Below are positions 11,888 to 19,451 of a DNA stretch of 64,000 nt, piece by piece. Position 1 is the stretch's first letter, and every line of letters begins with the position of its first letter. The stretch lies in the NCBI GenBank assembly GCA_964484255.1, contig CAZAEH010000004.1, positions 2,282 to 66,281 on the forward strand, read 5' to 3'. A program made the position numbers and the translations under genes. Origin of the DNA: an uncultured Planctomycetia bacterium. GTDB lineage: Bacteria > Omnitrophota > Gorgyraeia > Pluralincolimonadales > Pluralincolimonadaceae. The notes beneath the pieces were generated by a model. It worked only from the letters and a program-made list of their open reading frames with translations, searched no databases and had not been told where the DNA came from.

Positions 11888-13099
11888 TTATTTTCGCGCT
11901 CTCTCTAATCTTTGGCACTCTACCATATTTTCGAATGAGTCTTGCTTGATCTTCCCGTTCTTTGAAAAATCATTGGCGATCGAAAAACAAAAATAGGCCG
12001 CTTTTGCCTTTTCGCCTTTCTGCGGCTGTTTAAGCCTCCTTGCCTTCTTCAGGAGGTCTTCGCCCTGTTTGAAGTATCGGCCGCTCAGGTCGCTTATATA
12101 TGACTGGTCCTGCATCCTTATCATATAACCTGTCATTAGGGCATAACGGGCATCACTGAAAGGTTCAGGCTTAGTATCAAAAAACCTCTTAATGGCATCC
12201 CGGGCTTTTGAATCCGCCGTCTTCCTGACCTGCCCTCCGGATGAAGCAGCGACAATATCGTAACAGGCGATGGCAGCCACGTAATAGCCGCTCTTCCTGT
12301 CCTTGTCAACTTCTTCGGCGCGCGCCTCGTAGTCTATTCCCCTGTTGATGCACTTAATGAAATATGCCTGCTTGCATTCATCCGTACCCATGCGGGAAAG
12401 GATCGATTGCATTTCCTCTGCAGCAAAAACTATTTCAGGCAACTCCTGTGAATTGTCAAAAACCTTCGATGCCCTTGAACTTCCCCATATCTTAACTATC
12501 AGGCCCCTGGACTTTCCCGAGTAAGATGAATCCGGATAAAGGGAGATCACCGACCTCGCCAGCTGCTCGGCCTTATAATACTCACCCCATTTATATTCGG
12601 TCTCCGCTACGGCAAAAAGTTTTTCGGACTCTTTTTCCTGTACAGCCGCAAGGTCCTTACCCGCTTTCTCCGCAAGTTTGGGATCCAGTTCCTTTGCTAT
12701 CCTGTAATGCCTGTCGGCCATCTCGAACAGGCCGTTCTCCGGGGTCGCATTGTCATAACACCATTTTGCAAGCTGTAGTTGCGCGGACGCATCATCCGGT
12801 TTTATGCCATTAACCTTAGAAAAATATATATCCTGTTTGGTATAAAGGTCTTCTTCCCTTATATCCGATTTCACAATGTTCTTTATCCACGCTTTCGGAA
12901 AAGTGCTTGTCCCCCCGGTCTTGAGCTTGACGGTAACATGGGTATCGTCCTCGTTCACTATCTTTCCGTCCATCTTCCCTCCGCCATCCTTCAATTCGAT
13001 AATATCGGCAGAGCCGGCCGGACAAGACAATACCAGGGAAGTTGCCAGCAGGAAAAGAACCGGAAAACCACGACTCGACATCTTTCCTCCTATTTGCAA
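11888..13099 (-). CDS. Putative lipoprotein, alpha-helical/TPR-like, function unknown
   Basis: 403 aa. Signal peptide with lipobox-like LVLSC. No catalytic motifs recognised. Confidence 0.35.
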   Translation of the reverse strand: MQIGGKMSSRGFPVLFLLATSLVLSCPAGSADIIELKDGGGKMDGKIVNEDDTHVTVKLKTGGTSTFPKAWIKNIVKSDIREEDLYTKQDIYFSKVNGIKPDDASAQLQLAKWCYDNATPENGLFEMADRHYRIAKELDPKLAEKAGKDLAAVQEKESEKLFAVAETEYKWGEYYKAEQLARSVISLYPDSSYSGKSRGLIVKIWGSSRASKVFDNSQELPEIVFAAEEMQSILSRMGTDECKQAYFIKCINRGIDYEARAEEVDKDRKSGYYVAAIACYDIVAASSGGQVRKTADSKARDAIKRFFDTKPEPFSDARYALMTGYMIRMQDQSYISDLSGRYFKQGEDLLKKARRLKQPQKGEKAKAAYFCFSIANDFSKNGKIKQDSFENMVECQRLERARK

Positions 13100-16593: not shown

Positions 16594-19451
16594 CGTTGAT
16601 AGAATACCGTTGTAAAAGGTTTATGGTAGATAATCGTGACATCCGTAAGGACCGGCGTAATGCTGCTTGCCGAATAATCATTTGGATCAAGCGCATTCGT
16701 CGCAAGCAGGGCCTTATACTGGAACTTCCTCCCGGATAAGGCCGAGATAGAGTCCCCGCTTGCATAAGTTGAGGTAAAATTGTCCGATGACAACGGGCTG
16801 TCCGCAGCCCTCGCATACATGGTTATCGATGTGTTGGTCGGCACTATAGCGTTCCATGTTATGGAATCCCATGATATCCCTGCGTTATCTGTCGGTAATT
16901 TCGCGATGAAAGGGGCCGAGACTATATATCCCTTAGGGTATATTATCCTGACGTCATCGAACTGGTTGACGCATTCGGAATCGGAACCCCACCAATCGGC
17001 ATTCCTCTCTGCCAGCTCTTCTATGAAAGCATCATTCGCATGAGTGCTCCAAAACTGGACAAAATCGGCGTAATACAGGTTATTCCCCCTTAATTTCACC
17101 ACCCCTTCTTTTGAAGCACTGCCGGCTACGCGCAGATCACCCTGCACAAAATCGGAGCCCGCCGAAGTTGTATAAGTGTAATAGGGCCTGTAAGACGTCC
17201 CTACCCCCACGGCCGCCAATATATAATACTGGGAATCATCAGGCCATAAAGAGTATGTAGCGTTCTTCTCCACCTTAGACGGCAGGTTCGTCTCGTTAAC
17301 GTCGACCGAATAGAGATCGTCGCTATCCCCGTCCTTCACAAGGGTATAATATCCGCCTGTGGCCTTGGTCCCCTCGTAAGGCTCTTCCTTAAGGAATAGA
17401 TAACCGGTCAGCCACGAAGGACTGTAAGCGGGGGTGGGCTGCCCCGGGTTAGTAAGGCGTTTGCTCGGAGGCTTGTGCCATATCCAACTCCCCGTTTCTT
17501 TCTGCCCGTCATCATATACATAACACCTGGCGAATATGTCATATCCCAGCTCGGCGCTGGGGGCATAAAAATTGCCGTTAAGTTCCGCGGACCGCTCTTC
17601 GGGATAGTACTGTGTTCCCCCGTCCACATAATAGCCCTTCATGTCAAGCCTAAGGCTGTATGTCCCGTCAGAACCCTGCCTTAGGGAGGTATCGCCGAAA
17701 CTCAGGTCCCACCTCGAATCGGCTCCCCATATCACGTCGGTAGGTACAGCGAATGTCTTGCCGTCAGGGAAAGTATAATCTACGGCAGGCTTGACACCCG
17801 TGATCTTGGCCAGGTATCCGCCCCTCCAGTTTACGACGCTGTAGGCCACATCATCATCAAAATCGTCCCAAAAACCGAGTTTGACCGAATCATAACATTT
17901 CGTATAACCGGAGGTCTCCCATTCCATGCACGAACCGTTCCATGAGTCGGCGCTTATAGGGCAGGAATCCAGCCAGTTGACATTCCTGACCTCGCCGTCG
18001 CTGAAATCCCCGTAATTCGAGAACCACGGGGCATAAAACTCGGCCCGGGTGGTCTGGGTCAGGGTATTGAAGACCTCCACAACGGATACCAACTGCCTGA
18101 CCGCAAGCACGGAGCCATCCGGTCTCTTGGCCCTGCCCGTAGCCGTTATCTTGATTATCCCCCCGGAATTGTAATCCTCACCGAGGGTCGAGGCCGGTAC
18201 GCGGTCAGAGGTAGTCCATTTATCGAGTATCCTGCCGTAATACGATGTAGGCAGGTAAGCAAAATAATCGGCAGGGACATAATCTTCAGGGCCGAGGGCA
18301 TCCCATTTCAATTCCAGGGTATTCTGGTTTTCGTAATTATAGAGGTCCATCCTTATAGGATGCCATCCGCCGCGGGTAAACCTGACCGGACCGCTCGTAA
18401 GGACGTTCGTGGAAGGCCAGTTGCCCATGGACCTTTCGGTCCAATCGGCTATCAACTGCCTTCCGTCTATGAAAAGCCTGCAGCCCTGTTCGCTGCGCAT
18501 CCTGAAAGTTATGTCCTGGTTTATCTTGTTATCGGGAATATAGATGAAACCCGTGAATATCATGCCATAACGTTCCATCCCGTATTTATTTTGCCAATCG
18601 GTTATGACATATCCCCCTGAGAACTCCGCGTCATGCGCCTCCGCCCATCCTGAGTTATCCCCGTCCGCACCCGGGAAAGTCCCTGAAGGCGGATAGGGGG
18701 ACGACGCGGCGGCCGTAGCCTGTTTCATCGCGCCCAGATCTATGACCTTTCCTGAATAATAATCGAGGGAAAGAATGGTGTCTCTGCTCCAGGTCTCCCT
18801 GCTGTTGGTATAACCCTTGCATATCAGGCCGCCTTGTATTAACGGCGCATATATCGTGATAAGGTCCTTGATGCTGTTATATTTTCCGTCATCCTTGAGG
18901 ACCAGGCGAACCTCTTCTACAGTAGCAAAGGGCGCATCCTTGGCGTTCGTCTCGTCGCCGGCAGCCGAGACGCGACCTGCAGAGGTCAGTAACTGCGTCG
19001 TTGCACTGGAATCCTGATCGACATAATCGATTATCTTCGCAATATCGTCATAGCTCAGGCCTGCAGCAGCAAGTGTCTCGATCCACGGGTAATCGGTCTC
19101 GTCAATATTGTTGATATTGACCTCCTGGTCCTGCCTTTCGACATAAACCTGGTAGCTCCCTCCCGGAAGGTTGACCTCGGTACCGGGAGAAGAATAATTT
19201 GCCGCTATATCAGCCATTACCAAGCTGTAACTGTTACTTGCCGCCCAGTTGCGTATTTCCGCAACGGCGCGGTCGACGCCTGCCCGGGCCATCTCCTCAG
19301 CCTGGGTCTGGTTGACAAAATTCTGGACCGCTTTATACTCCATCTGCATATTTATGGCGAAACTCGTGGCTATCATAGCCACGAGCGCAAGTATGCCCAC
19401 AGCTATTATAAGGGCAACACCTTTCTTTTGTCTTAAGAACTTCTTATCCAC
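16590..19451 (-). CDS. Giant GspK/PilX-like pseudopilin-family protein with an internal PA14 domain (paralog 1)
   Basis: 953 aa. N-terminus KKGVALIIAVGILALVAMIATSFAINMQMEYKA. PA14-like segment YGMIFTGFIYIPDNKINQDITFRMRSEQGCRLFIDGRQLIADW...WHPIRMDLYNYENQNTLELKWD. Confidence 0.6.
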   Translation of the reverse strand: MDKKFLRQKKGVALIIAVGILALVAMIATSFAINMQMEYKAVQNFVNQTQAEEMARAGVDRAVAEIRNWAASNSYSLVMADIAANYSSPGTEVNLPGGSYQVYVERQDQEVNINNIDETDYPWIETLAAAGLSYDDIAKIIDYVDQDSSATTQLLTSAGRVSAAGDETNAKDAPFATVEEVRLVLKDDGKYNSIKDLITIYAPLIQGGLICKGYTNSRETWSRDTILSLDYYSGKVIDLGAMKQATAAASSPYPPSGTFPGADGDNSGWAEAHDAEFSGGYVITDWQNKYGMERYGMIFTGFIYIPDNKINQDITFRMRSEQGCRLFIDGRQLIADWTERSMGNWPSTNVLTSGPVRFTRGGWHPIRMDLYNYENQNTLELKWDALGPEDYVPADYFAYLPTSYYGRILDKWTTSDRVPASTLGEDYNSGGIIKITATGRAKRPDGSVLAVRQLVSVVEVFNTLTQTTRAEFYAPWFSNYGDFSDGEVRNVNWLDSCPISADSWNGSCMEWETSGYTKCYDSVKLGFWDDFDDDVAYSVVNWRGGYLAKITGVKPAVDYTFPDGKTFAVPTDVIWGADSRWDLSFGDTSLRQGSDGTYSLRLDMKGYYVDGGTQYYPEERSAELNGNFYAPSAELGYDIFARCYVYDDGQKETGSWIWHKPPSKRLTNPGQPTPAYSPSWLTGYLFLKEEPYEGTKATGGYYTLVKDGDSDDLYSVDVNETNLPSKVEKNATYSLWPDDSQYYILAAVGVGTSYRPYYTYTTSAGSDFVQGDLRVAGSASKEGVVKLRGNNLYYADFVQFWSTHANDAFIEELAERNADWWGSDSECVNQFDDVRIIYPKGYIVSAPFIAKLPTDNAGISWDSITWNAIVPTNTSITMYARAADSPLSSDNFTSTYASGDSISALSGRKFQYKALLATNALDPNDYSASSITPVLTDVTIIYHKPFTTVFYQR

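Follow-up and report, generated by a model that had tools for sequence, protein, structure and literature searches.

Giant GspK-class pseudopilins with lectin-type modules and linked signal-peptide partner genes in a T2SS-like operon of an Omnitrophota bacterium

Introduction

GspK/XcpX, the minor pseudopilin capping the GspI-J-K tip complex of the T2SS (PDB 3CI0, 5VTM), comprises about 300-350 residues. In an Omnitrophota bacterium, whose closest genome is UBA6215, two open reading frames (ORFs) of a T2SS-like operon begin like GspK, but extend over 837 and 953 residues. Are these ORFs genuine, to which class do their products belong, and how are they related to the genes that accompany them? 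We analysed a window of 64,000 nucleotides containing the operon and compared it with 54 related loci. A preliminary description had interpreted the arrangement as two K-like proteins flanking a secreted beta-helix protein.

Results

The operon and its machine genes

The operon encodes a T2SS-like type IV filament of the PVC/Amuc_1098-1101 type. Apart from the giant K genes and their neighbours, it consists of the following genes:

24145..25857, minus strand: assembly ATPase 1, GspE/PilB class, 570 aa; Pfam T2SSE (478 bits) and MshEN
22404..24155, minus strand: assembly ATPase 2, GspE class, 583 aa, with MshE-type c-di-GMP-binding N-terminus
21068..22333, minus strand: platform protein GspF/PilC, 421 aa; Pfam T2SSF twice
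20575..21075, minus strand: major pseudopilin, GspG-like, 166 aa, Glu5 present; Pfam T2SSG (40.9 bits) and N_methyl
20194..20547, minus strand: GspI-like minor pseudopilin, 117 aa, Glu5 present; N_methyl (30.5 bits)
19461..20210, minus strand: GspJ-position minor pseudopilin, 249 aa, Glu5 present; N_methyl (23.3 bits)
10207..11844, minus strand: PilM-PilN fusion, Amuc_1101 family-like, 545 aa; Pfam PilM_2 (122 bits) and PilN (36.8 bits)
5110..10204, minus strand: other machine genes, namely 254 aa, Amuc_1100/PilO-like; 225 aa; 371 aa, TPR and N0/STN; two short secretins (363 and 374 aa); 107 aa

With 634.3 and 656 bits, the two ATPases exceed the NCBIfam cutoff for GspE (630.25 bits), and neither reaches that of PilB, for which ATPase 1 scores 637.5 bits (cutoff 675.65); the c-di-GMP motif of ATPase 2 reaches 63.7 bits (cutoff 38). 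The platform protein scores 416.9 bits with NCBIfam GspF, the cutoff being 424. The major pseudopilin has the N-terminus G↓FTIIE (the arrow marks the predicted cleavage site). The GspI-like protein matches gspI (E = 6e-7) and XpsI (E = 5e-8), both under cutoff, and the GspJ-position protein gives weak matches to gspJ and to Verru_Chthon cassette protein C. The PilM-PilN fusion reaches 278 bits with NCBIfam Amuc_1101_fam, and the gene order of the region 5110..10204 is conserved in loci L003, L011, L014, L015, L018, and L020. No prepilin peptidase gene was found among the window ORFs scanned. An extended surface pilus is not assured, because the operon has no retraction ATPase (PilT) and its ATPases pass the GspE, not the PilB cutoff; at 51-64 kb, in a canonical T4aP locus distinct from the operon, the window also encodes a PilT-like ATPase. 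Note that the secretins, through which a tip of about 90-100 kDa and its partner would have to pass, are unusually short.

Two giant proteins of the GspK class

Both giant K genes lie within this operon directly behind the GspI/J-like genes, in agreement with the preliminary description. The GspJ-position gene is located upstream of a K gene in every related locus, and the order G-I-J-K is kept in more than 25 loci. The two proteins are composed as follows:

16590..19451, minus strand: K_PA14, giant K paralog 1, 953 aa; GspK core, PA14, lectin-fold C-terminal region
18840..19451, minus strand: K_PA14 residues 1-204; leader, G-1 site, alpha1 helix (10-72), first half of the GspK alpha-domain
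18252..18839, minus strand: K_PA14 residues about 205-400; PA14 domain
16593..17993, minus strand: K_PA14 residues about 487-953; WLDSCP and KLGFWDDFDDD motifs, beta-sandwich region
13090..15603, minus strand: K2, giant K paralog 2, 837 aa from ATG 15603; complete GspK fold, calcium-type loops, lectin-fold C-terminal region
14416..14478, minus strand: K2 residues 376-396; two EF-hand/dockerin-like loops, DANYNGLLD and DRNGNGVLD
13093..14409, minus strand: K2 residues about 399-837; WLNSCP, KIGFWDNFDEDNDN, third acidic loop (468), ConA-like beta-sandwich(es)

The ORFs of K_PA14, the beta-helix protein, and K2 were all confirmed on the minus strand, as was the paralogy of the two K proteins: BLASTP aligned them in three colinear blocks (E = 2e-19, 3e-12, and 3e-4), and the comparison of the family alignments by means of hhalign gave a probability of 100% and E = 1e-67 over 704 aligned columns. 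The motifs WLNSCP/WLDSCP and TPVLEDVT/TPVLTDVT, on which the assumed relationship had been based in part, occur in both and are conserved. The length of 858 residues given previously for K2 has to be corrected. The GTG start of this ORF falls within a terminator-like hairpin; the ORF is over-extended by 21 codons, and translation likely starts at ATG 15603, yielding 837 residues as in the homologs.

The N-termini KKG↓VALII and NKG↓VALIV have I or V at position +5 and are indeed devoid of Glu5. The leader (K/R)G↓(V/I)ALI without Glu5 is found throughout both K families, and the G, I, and J pilins carry this residue. A missing Glu5 is normal for GspK, the subunit that caps the GspI-J-K initiation complex. 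NCBIfam GspK matched both proteins with E about 1e-12, but with 48 bits against a cutoff of 130. Pfam T2SSK scored 23.9-24.0 bits for K2 in its 858- and 837-residue versions, the gathering score being 24.2. At the family level the expected profiles were recovered: T2SSK was matched at E < 0.01 in 27 of 32 members, PilX_N in 17 of 32. Pfam N_methyl matched neither giant K. In both cases the GspK core is retained: the prepilin-type leader has Gly as its last residue, alpha1 is long and hydrophobic, and the pilin beta-sheet and the inserted alpha-domain are present. AlphaFold yielded contiguous models of good confidence. [quoted passage not shown] These findings support the assignment of both predicted proteins to the minor pseudopilins of the GspK class, the lectin-type modules having enlarged them about threefold. 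The similarity to lectin folds amounts to 6-17% identity, which does not establish a bound ligand; the GH16 catalytic motif ExDxxE is absent from the C-terminal region.

The PA14 domain occupies in K_PA14 the place of the second helix-hairpin-helix (HhH) half of the GspK alpha-domain, which is present in K2. The presence of a PA14 domain had thus been recognised correctly, but its carbohydrate-binding type is questionable: at the DcisD position K_PA14 reads S-E-Q, and SEQ or SEN is found in the clade of this window. To judge from these residues, this clade has lost the canonical calcium/sugar motif DcisD, and lectin activity of its PA14 domains is doubtful for this reason. The acidic clusters likewise exist, but in K2 and not in the PA14 paralog, to which they had been ascribed. 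They comprise DxNxNGxxD twice and DxDxDGDxE; the EF-hand/dockerin-like loop motif is conserved in about 75% of the family, and the loops may bind calcium.

The giant size is unusual in comparison with textbook GspK, as had been pointed out, but ordinary within the lineage, as deduced from homologous sequences: the family profile recovers 449 clusters (50% identity) at E <= 1e-30, and almost all of these are 650-1070 aa long. Homologs already bear the NCBI names GspK and PA14 domain-containing protein.

Partner genes and cassettes

Each giant K gene is followed by a gene for a protein with a Sec-type signal:

15694..16593, minus strand: partner A, Sec-signal right-handed beta-helix protein, 299 aa; Pfam Beta_helix (29.3 bits, cutoff 25.9)
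15650..15667, minus strand: terminator-like hairpin at the cassette A/cassette B boundary; seven-pair stem followed by TTTTAT
11888..13081, minus strand: partner B (p403), 397 aa from ATG 13081; Sec signal, SH3-like N-domain of about 60 aa, TPR/BamD-like helical repeats
12812..13012, minus strand: small N-terminal beta domain of partner B, mature N-terminus ADIIELKDGG..., from which an HMM was built

The start of partner A overlaps the K_PA14 stop (ATGA), and partner B has the strong Shine-Dalgarno sequence AGGAGGA and an ATG 8 nt past the K2 stop. As read from these junctions, K_PA14 and the beta-helix protein are translationally coupled, and K2 and p403 are closely linked. The Sec-type signal peptide of partner A is conserved among orthologs, and the mature protein is short (about 250 aa). 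The beta-helix claimed previously was thus verified; its status as an enzyme or secreted cargo is unsupported. Its similarity to epimerases, esterases, and lyases is weak and limited to the N-cap, and it has no recognisable signature of a catalytic family. The thrombospondin and PbH1 domains that had been suggested were not matched. Partner B matches profiles of TPR and BamD chains and, weakly, NCBIfam Lepto_7_Nterm/PTPDL. According to the HMM, its small N-domain also occurs in beta-helix partners of distant loci and in a third partner type; partner A of this window is devoid of it. This domain is not exclusive to neighbours of K genes: one match, from a partner-side metagenome scan, belongs to a high-GC organism and adjoins a kinase and a sigma-54 activator. 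Other partner types have HEAT-like helical repeats.

Across the 54 loci, two two-gene cassettes recur: cassette A (PA14-K and beta-helix protein) and cassette B (K2 and the signal-peptide/SH3-like/TPR protein). Operons contain A only, B only, A+B, or A+B+B, which corresponds to two giant K genes here and between one and three in related operons. Among the 22 PA14-type K genes that were informative, 20 are followed by a signal-peptide protein: a beta-helix protein directly downstream in 15 cases, one past a GIY-YIG insertion in one case, and the small N-domain combined with another body in four. The SH3-like/TPR protein follows 17 K2-type genes, and its position is always directly downstream of a K2-type gene. 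A beta-helix-only partner was never found behind K2 in these loci, nor a TPR-only partner behind PA14-K. The giant K genes of L020 and L026 have no partner, and in L004 the partner position is taken by a 1782-aa beta-helix/PA14/LamG protein resembling a surface protein. Because these cassettes are independent of each other, the picture of a beta-helix cargo flanked by two K proteins, which had omitted partner B, does not fit.

Discussion

Relation to known systems

In contrast to GspK/XcpX, the giant K proteins possess the C-terminal lectin/glucanase-fold region, one paralog has a PA14 domain replacing half of the alpha-domain, each K gene has a partner gene behind it, and the NCBIfam equivalog cutoff is missed. 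Modular type IV minor pilins such as Streptococcus sanguinis PilB (vWA) and PilC (ConA-like lectin) resemble them in that a pilin moiety bears a bulky binding module, for which there is room only at the filament tip. The module classes ConA-like lectin and PA14 match, and PA14-pilin is among the 15 commonest modular pilin architectures catalogued (PMC8179133, PMC9934059). Here, however, larger modules are carried by a K-class subunit of a T2SS-like system in a diderm, PA14 sits within the pilin fold and is not appended to it, and a cognate partner gene follows downstream. The published catalogue is keyed on IPR012902 (PMC8179133, PMC9934059); the corresponding Pfam model, N_methyl, misses both giant K proteins.

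CofB-CofJ and TcpB-TcpF of type IVb pili likewise combine a large tip minor pilin having a lectin-type C-terminal domain with a Sec-exported partner from the same operon, and the lectin domain of CofB binds secreted CofJ, whose N-terminal segment docks into it (PMC6048534). The two systems are unrelated in sequence; CofB, a T4b initiator trimer, is not homologous to GspK, and an interaction of K and partner is suggested here by gene linkage. For the Myxococcus xanthus Kil (Tad) pilus, interchangeable tips formed by the Tip complexes KilL/M/N were proposed for recognising different prey (PMC12075869). The one to three giant-K cassettes of a putatively host-dependent phylum parallel these several paralogous tip sets, in which a large pilin exposes a variable distal domain. 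The Kil filament, however, is of another class (Tad/Flp) and has TadE/F/G-type pilins, and its trimers are duplicated as a whole at separate loci. In the present operon, duplication is confined to the K gene and its partner, and the paralogs have I and J in common. The size of about 100 kDa, the minor-pilin tip complex, and EF-hand-like calcium sites recall PilY1/PilC of type IVa pili. PilY1, however, is a non-pilin beta-propeller protein docked on PilX-type pilins; in the giant K proteins the large module forms part of the K pilin itself, and a beta-propeller was not found. Verru_Chthon cassette protein A (TIGR02600, about 1300 aa; accompanied by B, C, and D) is also a very large PVC-group protein with a GspK/PilX-like N-terminus beside small pilin-like proteins. 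The giant K and I/J-like proteins match Verru_Chthon models A, B, and C weakly at the N-terminus, but only over the first 60-65 residues and with 24-25 bits against a cutoff of 332, and are not of the same family.

Proposed interchangeable tips and competing explanations

The explanation we consider the most probable is that a K-class pseudopilin was turned into a carrier of large ligand-binding modules, giving interchangeable filament tips with cognate exported partners. A prepilin peptidase would cleave the leader, and either giant K would nucleate a filament along with the shared I- and J-like pilins and, at its tip, present the lectin-fold modules through the secretin. This genome would accordingly possess two alternative tips, and related genomes between one and three. 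Of the earlier idea of a tip decorated with binding modules, the lectin-type modules on GspK-class proteins hold; the tip location is suggested by GspK biology, namely the lack of Glu5, the bulky cap, and the gene order. Each K would have its Sec-exported partner, the beta-helix protein for PA14-K and the SH3-like/TPR protein for K2, which most likely binds the C-terminal K module in the periplasm and is then co-displayed or delivered at the tip. Alternatively, it may stabilise K ahead of assembly.

A dedicated secretion device has a smaller, yet appreciable chance of being correct. The operon would then be a true T2SS with a periplasmic endopilus, the lectin folds would serve as docking platforms for specific substrates, and the downstream Sec-exported proteins (beta-helix, TPR, others) would be pushed through the secretin and released. 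The GspE-type scores of both ATPases, the T2SSG domain of the major pilin, and the lack of a PilT in the operon, with the PilT-like ATPase in the separate T4aP locus, are in agreement with this explanation, as are the signal peptides of the partners and their tight coupling to their own K genes; export of TcpF and CofJ by type IVb pili is a precedent (PMC6048534). However, TPR and HEAT-like partners look more like scaffolds or chaperones than like effectors, no catalytic signature is recognisable in the beta-helix protein, and a T2SS with one substrate per K would be unusually narrow. Alternatively, the partners might be periplasmic chaperones or assembly factors which never leave the cell, a somewhat less probable case. 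Their task would be to hold or fold the large C-terminal K domains, or to guide the complex to the secretin, up to the priming of the filament, in a manner comparable to TPR pilotins or accessory factors acting on PilY1. The TPR/BamD-like and HEAT-like repeats, the 1:1 stoichiometry with K suggested by coupled translation, and the fact that the K type predicts the partner type argue for such a role; a beta-helix is an atypical chaperone fold, the L004 protein looks surface-type, and the giant K genes of L020 and L026 manage without a partner.

It is improbable that the giant K proteins are no filament subunits, but bitopic inner-membrane proteins with an uncleaved N-terminal helix, which were recruited from a GspK ancestor and act in the periplasm or envelope, e.g. 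as glycan sensors or wall-binding proteins. The low NCBIfam GspK score, the missing N_methyl match, and a size far beyond the GspK norm would be compatible with it. A normal GspK falsely fused to downstream genes by a frameshift or assembly error, which had been named as a possible objection, has a negligible probability. Nothing beyond the over-extended start of the 858-aa ORF points to it, and 23 and more than 40 full-length homologs (93-100% coverage, 32-92% identity) come from dozens of independent assemblies (NCBI, JGI, ENA, Logan) and thus rule it out; the contiguous models and the 449 clusters also argue against it.

The pattern of giant modular K proteins, with a partner gene behind each, is common in the lineage, yet unstudied. 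If they do form interchangeable tips, these would probably serve to recognise surfaces rich in glycans, on host or prey cells or on polymers, and to attach to them. T4P-type clusters of Omnitrophota have been linked to a host-dependent lifestyle (PMC10066038), and attachment to glycan surfaces would fit this proposed way of life.

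Organisation of the giant-K operon

The window contains about 50% G+C, is coded almost wholly on the minus strand and holds no tRNA gene. To judge from the names of homologs and the closest genome, the source organism is a member of Candidatus Omnitrophota; the relative closest to it, with 90% amino-acid identity, is Ca. Omnitrophica bacterium UBA6215 (DISH01000006.1). From 25857 to 5110 a single long array of closely packed genes occupies the minus strand:

Genes of the giant-K operon, with open reading frames (ORFs) as first called
24145-25857, minus strand: GspE/PilB-class ATPase, one of two in tandem
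22404-24155, minus strand: GspE/PilB-class ATPase, the other of the tandem pair
21068-22333, minus strand: GspF, score just under the NCBIfam cutoff
20575-21075, minus strand: GspG-like major pseudopilin with T2SSG domain
20194-20547, minus strand: GspI-like pilin, 117 aa
19461-20210, minus strand: pilin in the GspJ position, 249 aa
16590-19451, minus strand: K_PA14, 953-aa ORF
15694-16593, minus strand: beta-helix protein (partner A), 299-aa ORF
13090-15666, minus strand: K2, 858-aa ORF (likely start ATG at 15603)
11888-13099, minus strand: SH3-like/TPR protein (partner B), 403-aa ORF (true start ATG at 13081)
remainder to 5110, minus strand: PilM-PilN fusion, three small or TPR proteins, two short secretins and a 107-aa ORF

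The K genes stand after gspI and gspJ and share the operon with gspE, gspF, gspG and secretin genes, a placement that counts towards GspK membership. No GspH-like gene was seen in the giant-K operon, and the window ORFs that were scanned include no prepilin peptidase. Immediately upstream, the operon is preceded by genes for a fusion of bactofilin and HTH_17 and for an MgtC-family protein (26394-26933); this neighbourhood of TsaD, MgtC and bactofilin-HTH genes is conserved in two related loci from other assemblies, L001 and L003.

The preliminary description, made from the sequence alone, had named frameshift-generated fusions as one of the findings that would undo its two giant GspK/PilX-like paralogs. 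Such an origin is ruled out by full-length homologs, of which we found 23 and more than 40 for the two K proteins in NCBI, JGI, ENA and Logan assemblies (32-92% identity, 93-100% coverage); the large ORFs are genuine. When 1.84 billion cluster representatives were searched with the profile, 449 clusters matched at E <= 1e-30, nearly all with a length of 650-1070 aa. The length of 953 aa given for K_PA14 stands, whereas the 858 aa given for K2 has to be corrected. The GTG start of the 858-aa ORF falls within a terminator-like hairpin (15650-15667, seven pairs followed by TTTTAT) between the partner A gene and the start of K2, and is therefore regarded as spurious; in the homologs, the first residue corresponds to the ATG at 15603 (MTKNL...), a start that yields 837 aa. 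The hairpin is a possible attenuator separating the two pairs of K and partner genes.

Class assignment and architecture of the K proteins

The two large ORFs are paralogous, as had been proposed. BLASTP aligned K_PA14 and K2 in three colinear blocks (E = 2e-19, 3e-12 and 3e-4), and hhalign, applied to the alignments of both families, gave a probability of 100% with E = 1e-67 over 704 aligned columns. Their N-termini are likewise of the pseudopilin-K type. Both leaders are basic and end in Gly, with VALI(I/V) and then a long hydrophobic helix behind them; they read KKG-VALIIAVGILALVAMIATSFA and NKG-VALIVTVGVLALIALIATSFA and are conserved in 24 and 32 homologs, respectively. In the predicted structures the alpha1 helix comprises residues 10-72 and 10-74. 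Position +5 is Ile or Val in both proteins, so that Glu5 is absent; the G-, I- and J-like pilins of the operon read G-(F/L)T(L/I)(I/V)E and possess a Glu at +5. Since K subunits normally have no Glu5 (PMC9934059), we take its absence as evidence for K identity and not as an oddity.

Profile scores alone lie at the border. The Pfam model T2SSK reached 23.9-24.0 bits on K2, below the gathering score of 24.2, and PilX_N gave E = 0.0025 on the same protein, with either start; among the 32 K2 homologs, T2SSK was matched in 27 (E < 0.01) and PilX_N in 17. The NCBIfam model GspK (NF037980) detected both K proteins with E of about 1e-12, yet with 48 bits compared to an equivalog cutoff of 130. Single-sequence phmmer searches of both proteins against the PDB returned noise only, and profiles and fold searches were needed. 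It is structure prediction that settles the question of GspK-likeness: the modelled fold is a pilin fold with an inserted helical alpha-domain, in agreement with the solved structures of GspK and XcpX. Taken together, the giant proteins very probably belong to the GspK class.

K2 holds a complete GspK unit, consisting of leader, alpha1 helix (10-74), beta-strands, alpha-domain and closing beta-strands (322-366). The helical alpha-domain (about 131-301) is composed of two HhH-type subdomains, with T2SSK/HHH_3 matches at 225-264. The unit is followed by two conserved nine-residue DxNxNGxxD loops and, after these, by a beta-sandwich region of about 440 residues. The loops of acidic, EF-hand-like type (DANYNGLLD, DRNGNGVLD, DSDSDGDCE) belong to K2 and not, as the preliminary description had it, to the paralog with the PA14 domain. 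Similarity of the giant K modules to lectin folds amounts to 6-17% identity. A GH16-type enzyme in the K C-terminus was rejected because the catalytic motif ExDxxE/ExDxE was not found in this region; for the same reason, binding is a more likely role of the K2 beta-sandwich than catalysis. In the K2 family, Cys316 is conserved in 31 of 32 sequences and Cys409, located in WLNSCP, in all 32, and the two probably form a disulfide. The corresponding WLDSCP cysteine of the PA14-type family (residue 497 in K_PA14) is kept in 24/24 members; its partner Cys is not conserved. Thrombospondin type 3 and PbH1 repeats, raised as candidates earlier, gave no match with Pfam or NCBIfam at E <= 0.1, nor did dockerin signatures.

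Two stretches of K_PA14 can be aligned with K2, one running from the leader as far as about residue 200, the other starting at about residue 427 and reaching the C-terminus. The segment between them carries, at about 205-400, a PA14 domain in place of the second HhH subdomain of K2, which explains why the Pfam search found no T2SSK match in K_PA14. Both the beta-barrel fold and the sequence profile identify this domain as PA14, and to this extent the earlier assignment holds. In Flo5, Epa1 and MpIBP, Ca2+ and sugar are held by the DcisD motif, two consecutive aspartates preceding G-x-R-L-x-I-D-G. The equivalent position of K_PA14 is S320-E321-Q322; close relatives have SEQ or SEN, and more distant family members keep DD. 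Because the motif is gone, a canonical PA14 lectin site is not supported for K_PA14 and was rejected for its clade. An association between retention of DD and type of partner was looked for among the family members and not found. With a GspK core, a PA14 domain and a ConA-like beta-sandwich fused in one chain, the protein corresponds to a modular type IV pilin, i.e. a pilin moiety with class III signal peptide fused to a non-pilin domain whose fold is recognisable (PMC8179133).

Proteins encoded next to the K genes

Partner A, encoded between the K genes, is the Sec-signal beta-helix protein that had been described: it scores 29.3 bits against Pfam Beta_helix (cutoff 25.9), and a Sec-type signal peptide is present at the N-terminus of the protein and all its orthologs. 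Matches to chains of epimerases, pectinesterases and PL6 enzymes cover the N-cap and a few turns (E = 5e-6 to 1e-4), and scores against all other Pfam and NCBIfam models are below cutoff. The stop codon of K_PA14 overlaps with the start codon of partner A in the sequence ATGA.

Partner B starts at the ATG at 13081, 8 nt past the K2 stop and behind the Shine-Dalgarno sequence AGGAGGA, and comprises 397 aa. It is made up of a Sec signal peptide, in which an AxA-D site is conserved, a small beta domain of about 60 aa with weak matches to the NCBIfam models Lepto_7_Nterm and PTPDL, and TPR/BamD-like helical repeats; the family profile matches the TPR consensus with E = 1e-26 and BamD with E = 2e-6. 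A reading as lipoprotein (LVLSC) was rejected, as the Cys is not conserved whereas the signal-peptidase I site is. A search with the 397-aa protein returned 17 close Omnitrophota hypothetical proteins and no independent contexts.

The small N-terminal beta domain (mature sequence ADIIxLKxGG...) is present in all TPR partners, in the beta-helix partners of distant loci (L005, L018, L024) and in a third partner type; the window's own partner A is devoid of it. In the window and the related loci that were compared, every protein containing it is encoded directly downstream of a giant K gene. Exclusiveness to K neighbours is nevertheless not supported, given at least one locus confirmed in a metagenome scan from the partner side, a weak test with a query of four sequences: on a high-GC metagenome contig (L055, 5737-7476), a 579-aa protein with a similar domain adjoins an FHA-GAF-sigma54 activator and a Ser/Thr kinase and not a GspK.

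Type of machine

Both ATPases pass the NCBIfam cutoff for GspE (634 and 656 bits; cutoff 630) and miss the one for PilB (675.65). The MshE-type c-di-GMP-binding motif (cutoff 38) reaches 63.7 bits in the ATPase at 22404-24155 and 27.1 in that at 24145-25857. No retraction ATPase (PilT) is encoded in the giant-K operon; in the related loci L029, L038 and L048, a short PilT-like ATPase is inserted between the two tandem ATPases. The secretins of the operon score best against GspD.

The inner- and outer-membrane accessory part of the operon is T4P-like and resembles the pilus-like cluster Amuc_1098-1101 of Akkermansia. The PilM-PilN fusion matches the Amuc_1101 family model with 278 bits, and the next gene gives a weak match to the Amuc_1100 family (9440-11844); on these grounds we relate the machine to the "pili-like" Amuc_1098-1102 cluster. 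Furthermore, a 371-aa protein with TPR and N0/STN domains matches positions 159-370 of the Amuc_1098-family profile (5430-8760), and the tandem short secretins of 363 and 374 aa match positions 662-804. An Amuc_1098-like outer-membrane channel thus appears, from these profile matches, to be split into three genes, and this arrangement is conserved in relatives. Based on its ATPase, secretin and T2SSG traits and on the Amuc-like accessory part, the giant-K operon is classified as T2SS-like within the type IV filament superfamily, and it may build either a periplasmic endopilus or an extended fibre.

At 51-64 kb (51116-63901), the window contains a further filament locus, distinct from the giant-K operon and of canonical T4aP type; its minor pilins are of normal size:

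Genes of the T4aP locus
51116-52876: PilQ-like secretin
53228-53860: PilO
54478-55404: PilM
55408-55866: pilin
55979-58303, plus strand: minor pilins, including a 423-aa DUF4900 protein
59754-60965: PilC
60967-62742: PilB
62684-63901: PilT-like ATPase

Two recurrent K-partner cassettes

The ORFs of 54 related loci were searched, the queries being the window proteins and HMMs derived from these. Two two-gene cassettes recur: cassette A combines a PA14-type K with a signal-peptide partner, cassette B a K2-type K with an SH3-like/TPR partner. For 22 PA14-type genes the position downstream was informative. A beta-helix protein follows directly in 15 cases, commonly with a 4-nt overlap, and another signal-peptide protein of about 340 aa in four; in one (L004) the partner position is occupied, after a GIY-YIG insertion, by a 1782-aa beta-helix/PA14/LamG protein, and behind the remaining two no comparable protein was found. 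K2-type genes are followed by a homolog of partner B in 17 cases. Cassette A alone is present in L011, L014, L015, L018 and L024, cassette B alone in L025, L035, L036, L039 and L051; both occur in the window, L003, L006, L007 and L012, and the series A+B+B in L001, L008 and L010. Duplication does not extend to the I- and J-like genes. Among the fetched loci, a beta-helix-only partner never followed a K2-type gene, nor a TPR-only partner a PA14-type gene. Note that the loci were gathered from the K side, and the apparent specificity of linkage between K and partner is therefore biased.

HEAT-like proteins with a signal peptide are encoded behind further K2-like genes (L038, L048, L050). In the divergent loci L034, L044, L045, L046 and L047, the giant K2-like gene precedes a 104-aa protein and not a signal-peptide partner; those inspected (L034, L044, L046) are PilZ-domain-like and have no signal peptide. 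The closest genomes possess a second giant-K locus, namely L021 (on the contig of L006, DISH01000006.1, UBA6215) and L031/L012 (PLNR01000009.1). L021 contains three giant K genes in a row, coding for 964, 1041 and at least 493 aa, the third running off the contig end; the 964- and 1041-aa genes each precede a protein of about 340-355 aa with the small N-domain and with neither a beta-helix nor a TPR body. In L004/L013 (12833-19150), from a distant relative, GIY-YIG ORFs of 90 and 105 aa flank the 1782-aa protein on either side, which suggests mobile-element activity at the cassette boundary. L005/L016 harbour a distant cassette of PA14-type K and beta-helix protein with pilin genes only; ATPase and secretin genes are missing from the vicinity, where PEP-CTERM proteins, a LacI-type regulator and two GH2 glycosidases are encoded, a setting that resembles polysaccharide utilisation.

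The comparative loci alter the interpretation given previously, in which the beta-helix protein was a candidate cargo embedded between two flanking K proteins. They resolve the region into separate units of K and partner, and the product of the beta-helix gene is most readily understood as the cognate partner of the PA14-type K. By the same token, the 397-aa gene at 11888-13081 is predicted to be the cognate partner of K2, a unit absent from the preliminary description. The observation reported there is confirmed, and its interpretation is partly supported.

Proposed mode of action and alternatives

In the I-J-K complex, which primes filament assembly, the K subunit lacks Glu5 and acts as a steric cap (PMC9934059; PDB 3CI0, 5VTM). 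By analogy, after cleavage of its leader either giant K would join the shared I- and J-like pilins and end up on the filament tip, where its lectin-fold modules would be displayed; the window genome would have two alternative tips and its relatives one to three. We consider this tip-module reading as a whole to be reasonably probable. The Sec-exported partner would meet the C-terminal module of K in the periplasm, and would then be co-displayed, delivered or act as a holding factor. For this binding step, suggested by gene linkage and the co-variation of K type with partner type, we judge the chances to be about even. A precedent is the lectin domain of CofB, which binds the N-terminal segment of CofJ, a secreted protein encoded in the same operon (PMC6048534).

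Other readings of the same genes were weighed. That the operon is a dedicated secretion device with the partners as its substrates seems unlikely to us, and that the partners are purely periplasmic chaperones we hold to be quite unlikely. K proteins that stay anchored in the membrane and never enter a filament are very improbable, and for an artefact the probability is negligible, as full-length K homologs come from independent assemblies. Beyond the tip-module reading, one may envisage exchangeable tips, in which the lectin-fold domain of each K docks a specific Sec-exported partner and the T2SS-like filament carries it out on its tip. The docked protein would be either a glycan-active beta-helix protein or a scaffold (TPR, HEAT or other), in many cases attached through the shared SH3-like N-domain, and genomes would differ by gain, loss and duplication of cassettes (A, B, A+B, A+B+B and other partner types). 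This would give the ultra-small Omnitrophota a swappable, contact-dependent tool with which to recognise and attack the envelopes of host or prey, a proposal that we hold to be unlikely.

Relation to known systems and significance

That functional modules are grafted on minor pilins and presented at the tip is already known: modular pilins carry lectin, vWA and PA14 modules (PMC8179133, PMC9934059), and the predation pilus of Myxococcus uses interchangeable KilLMN tips (PMC12075869). Clusters of the T4P type have been highlighted as symbiosis or predation traits of Omnitrophota, with GspK, pseudopilins and PA14 unmentioned (PMC10066038), and our literature search found no paper on giant GspK proteins in this phylum. 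Databases name the giant K proteins type II secretion system protein GspK or PA14 domain-containing protein. The TIGRFAMs cassette of Verrucomicrobia/Chthoniobacter includes a 1300-aa GspK-like protein A, which differs in that only its N-terminus matches the proteins described here. What appears to be new is that the K-class subunit itself carries about 450-650 extra lectin-fold residues in a family of hundreds of clusters, and that half of the GspK alpha-domain has given way to a PA14 domain. The cassettes of modular K and cognate exported partner, whose number and type vary between genomes, and the small N-terminal domain common to otherwise unrelated partners likewise appear to be new.

What a type IV filament or a T2SS pseudopilus binds or secretes depends on its tip complex of minor pilins. 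Until now, the K subunit was seen as a small structural cap whose alpha-domain lacks an evident role. Here, it is a carrier of large lectin-fold modules that are exchangeable, with PA14 substituted for half of the alpha-domain, as well as duplicable, and a cognate exported partner is linked to each K. Hundreds of clusters at 50% identity, from Omnitrophota and from neighbouring lineages (PVC/Planctomycetota), make up the family. Should the tip-cassette reading be true, the concepts of modular pilins and interchangeable tips would extend to the GspK class, beyond Gram-positive T4P and Tad pili, and current domain-based searches for modular pilins that are keyed on the N-methylation motif may miss the giant-K class. 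It would also provide a testable handle on how these uncultured, probably host-dependent nanobacteria recognise their targets.
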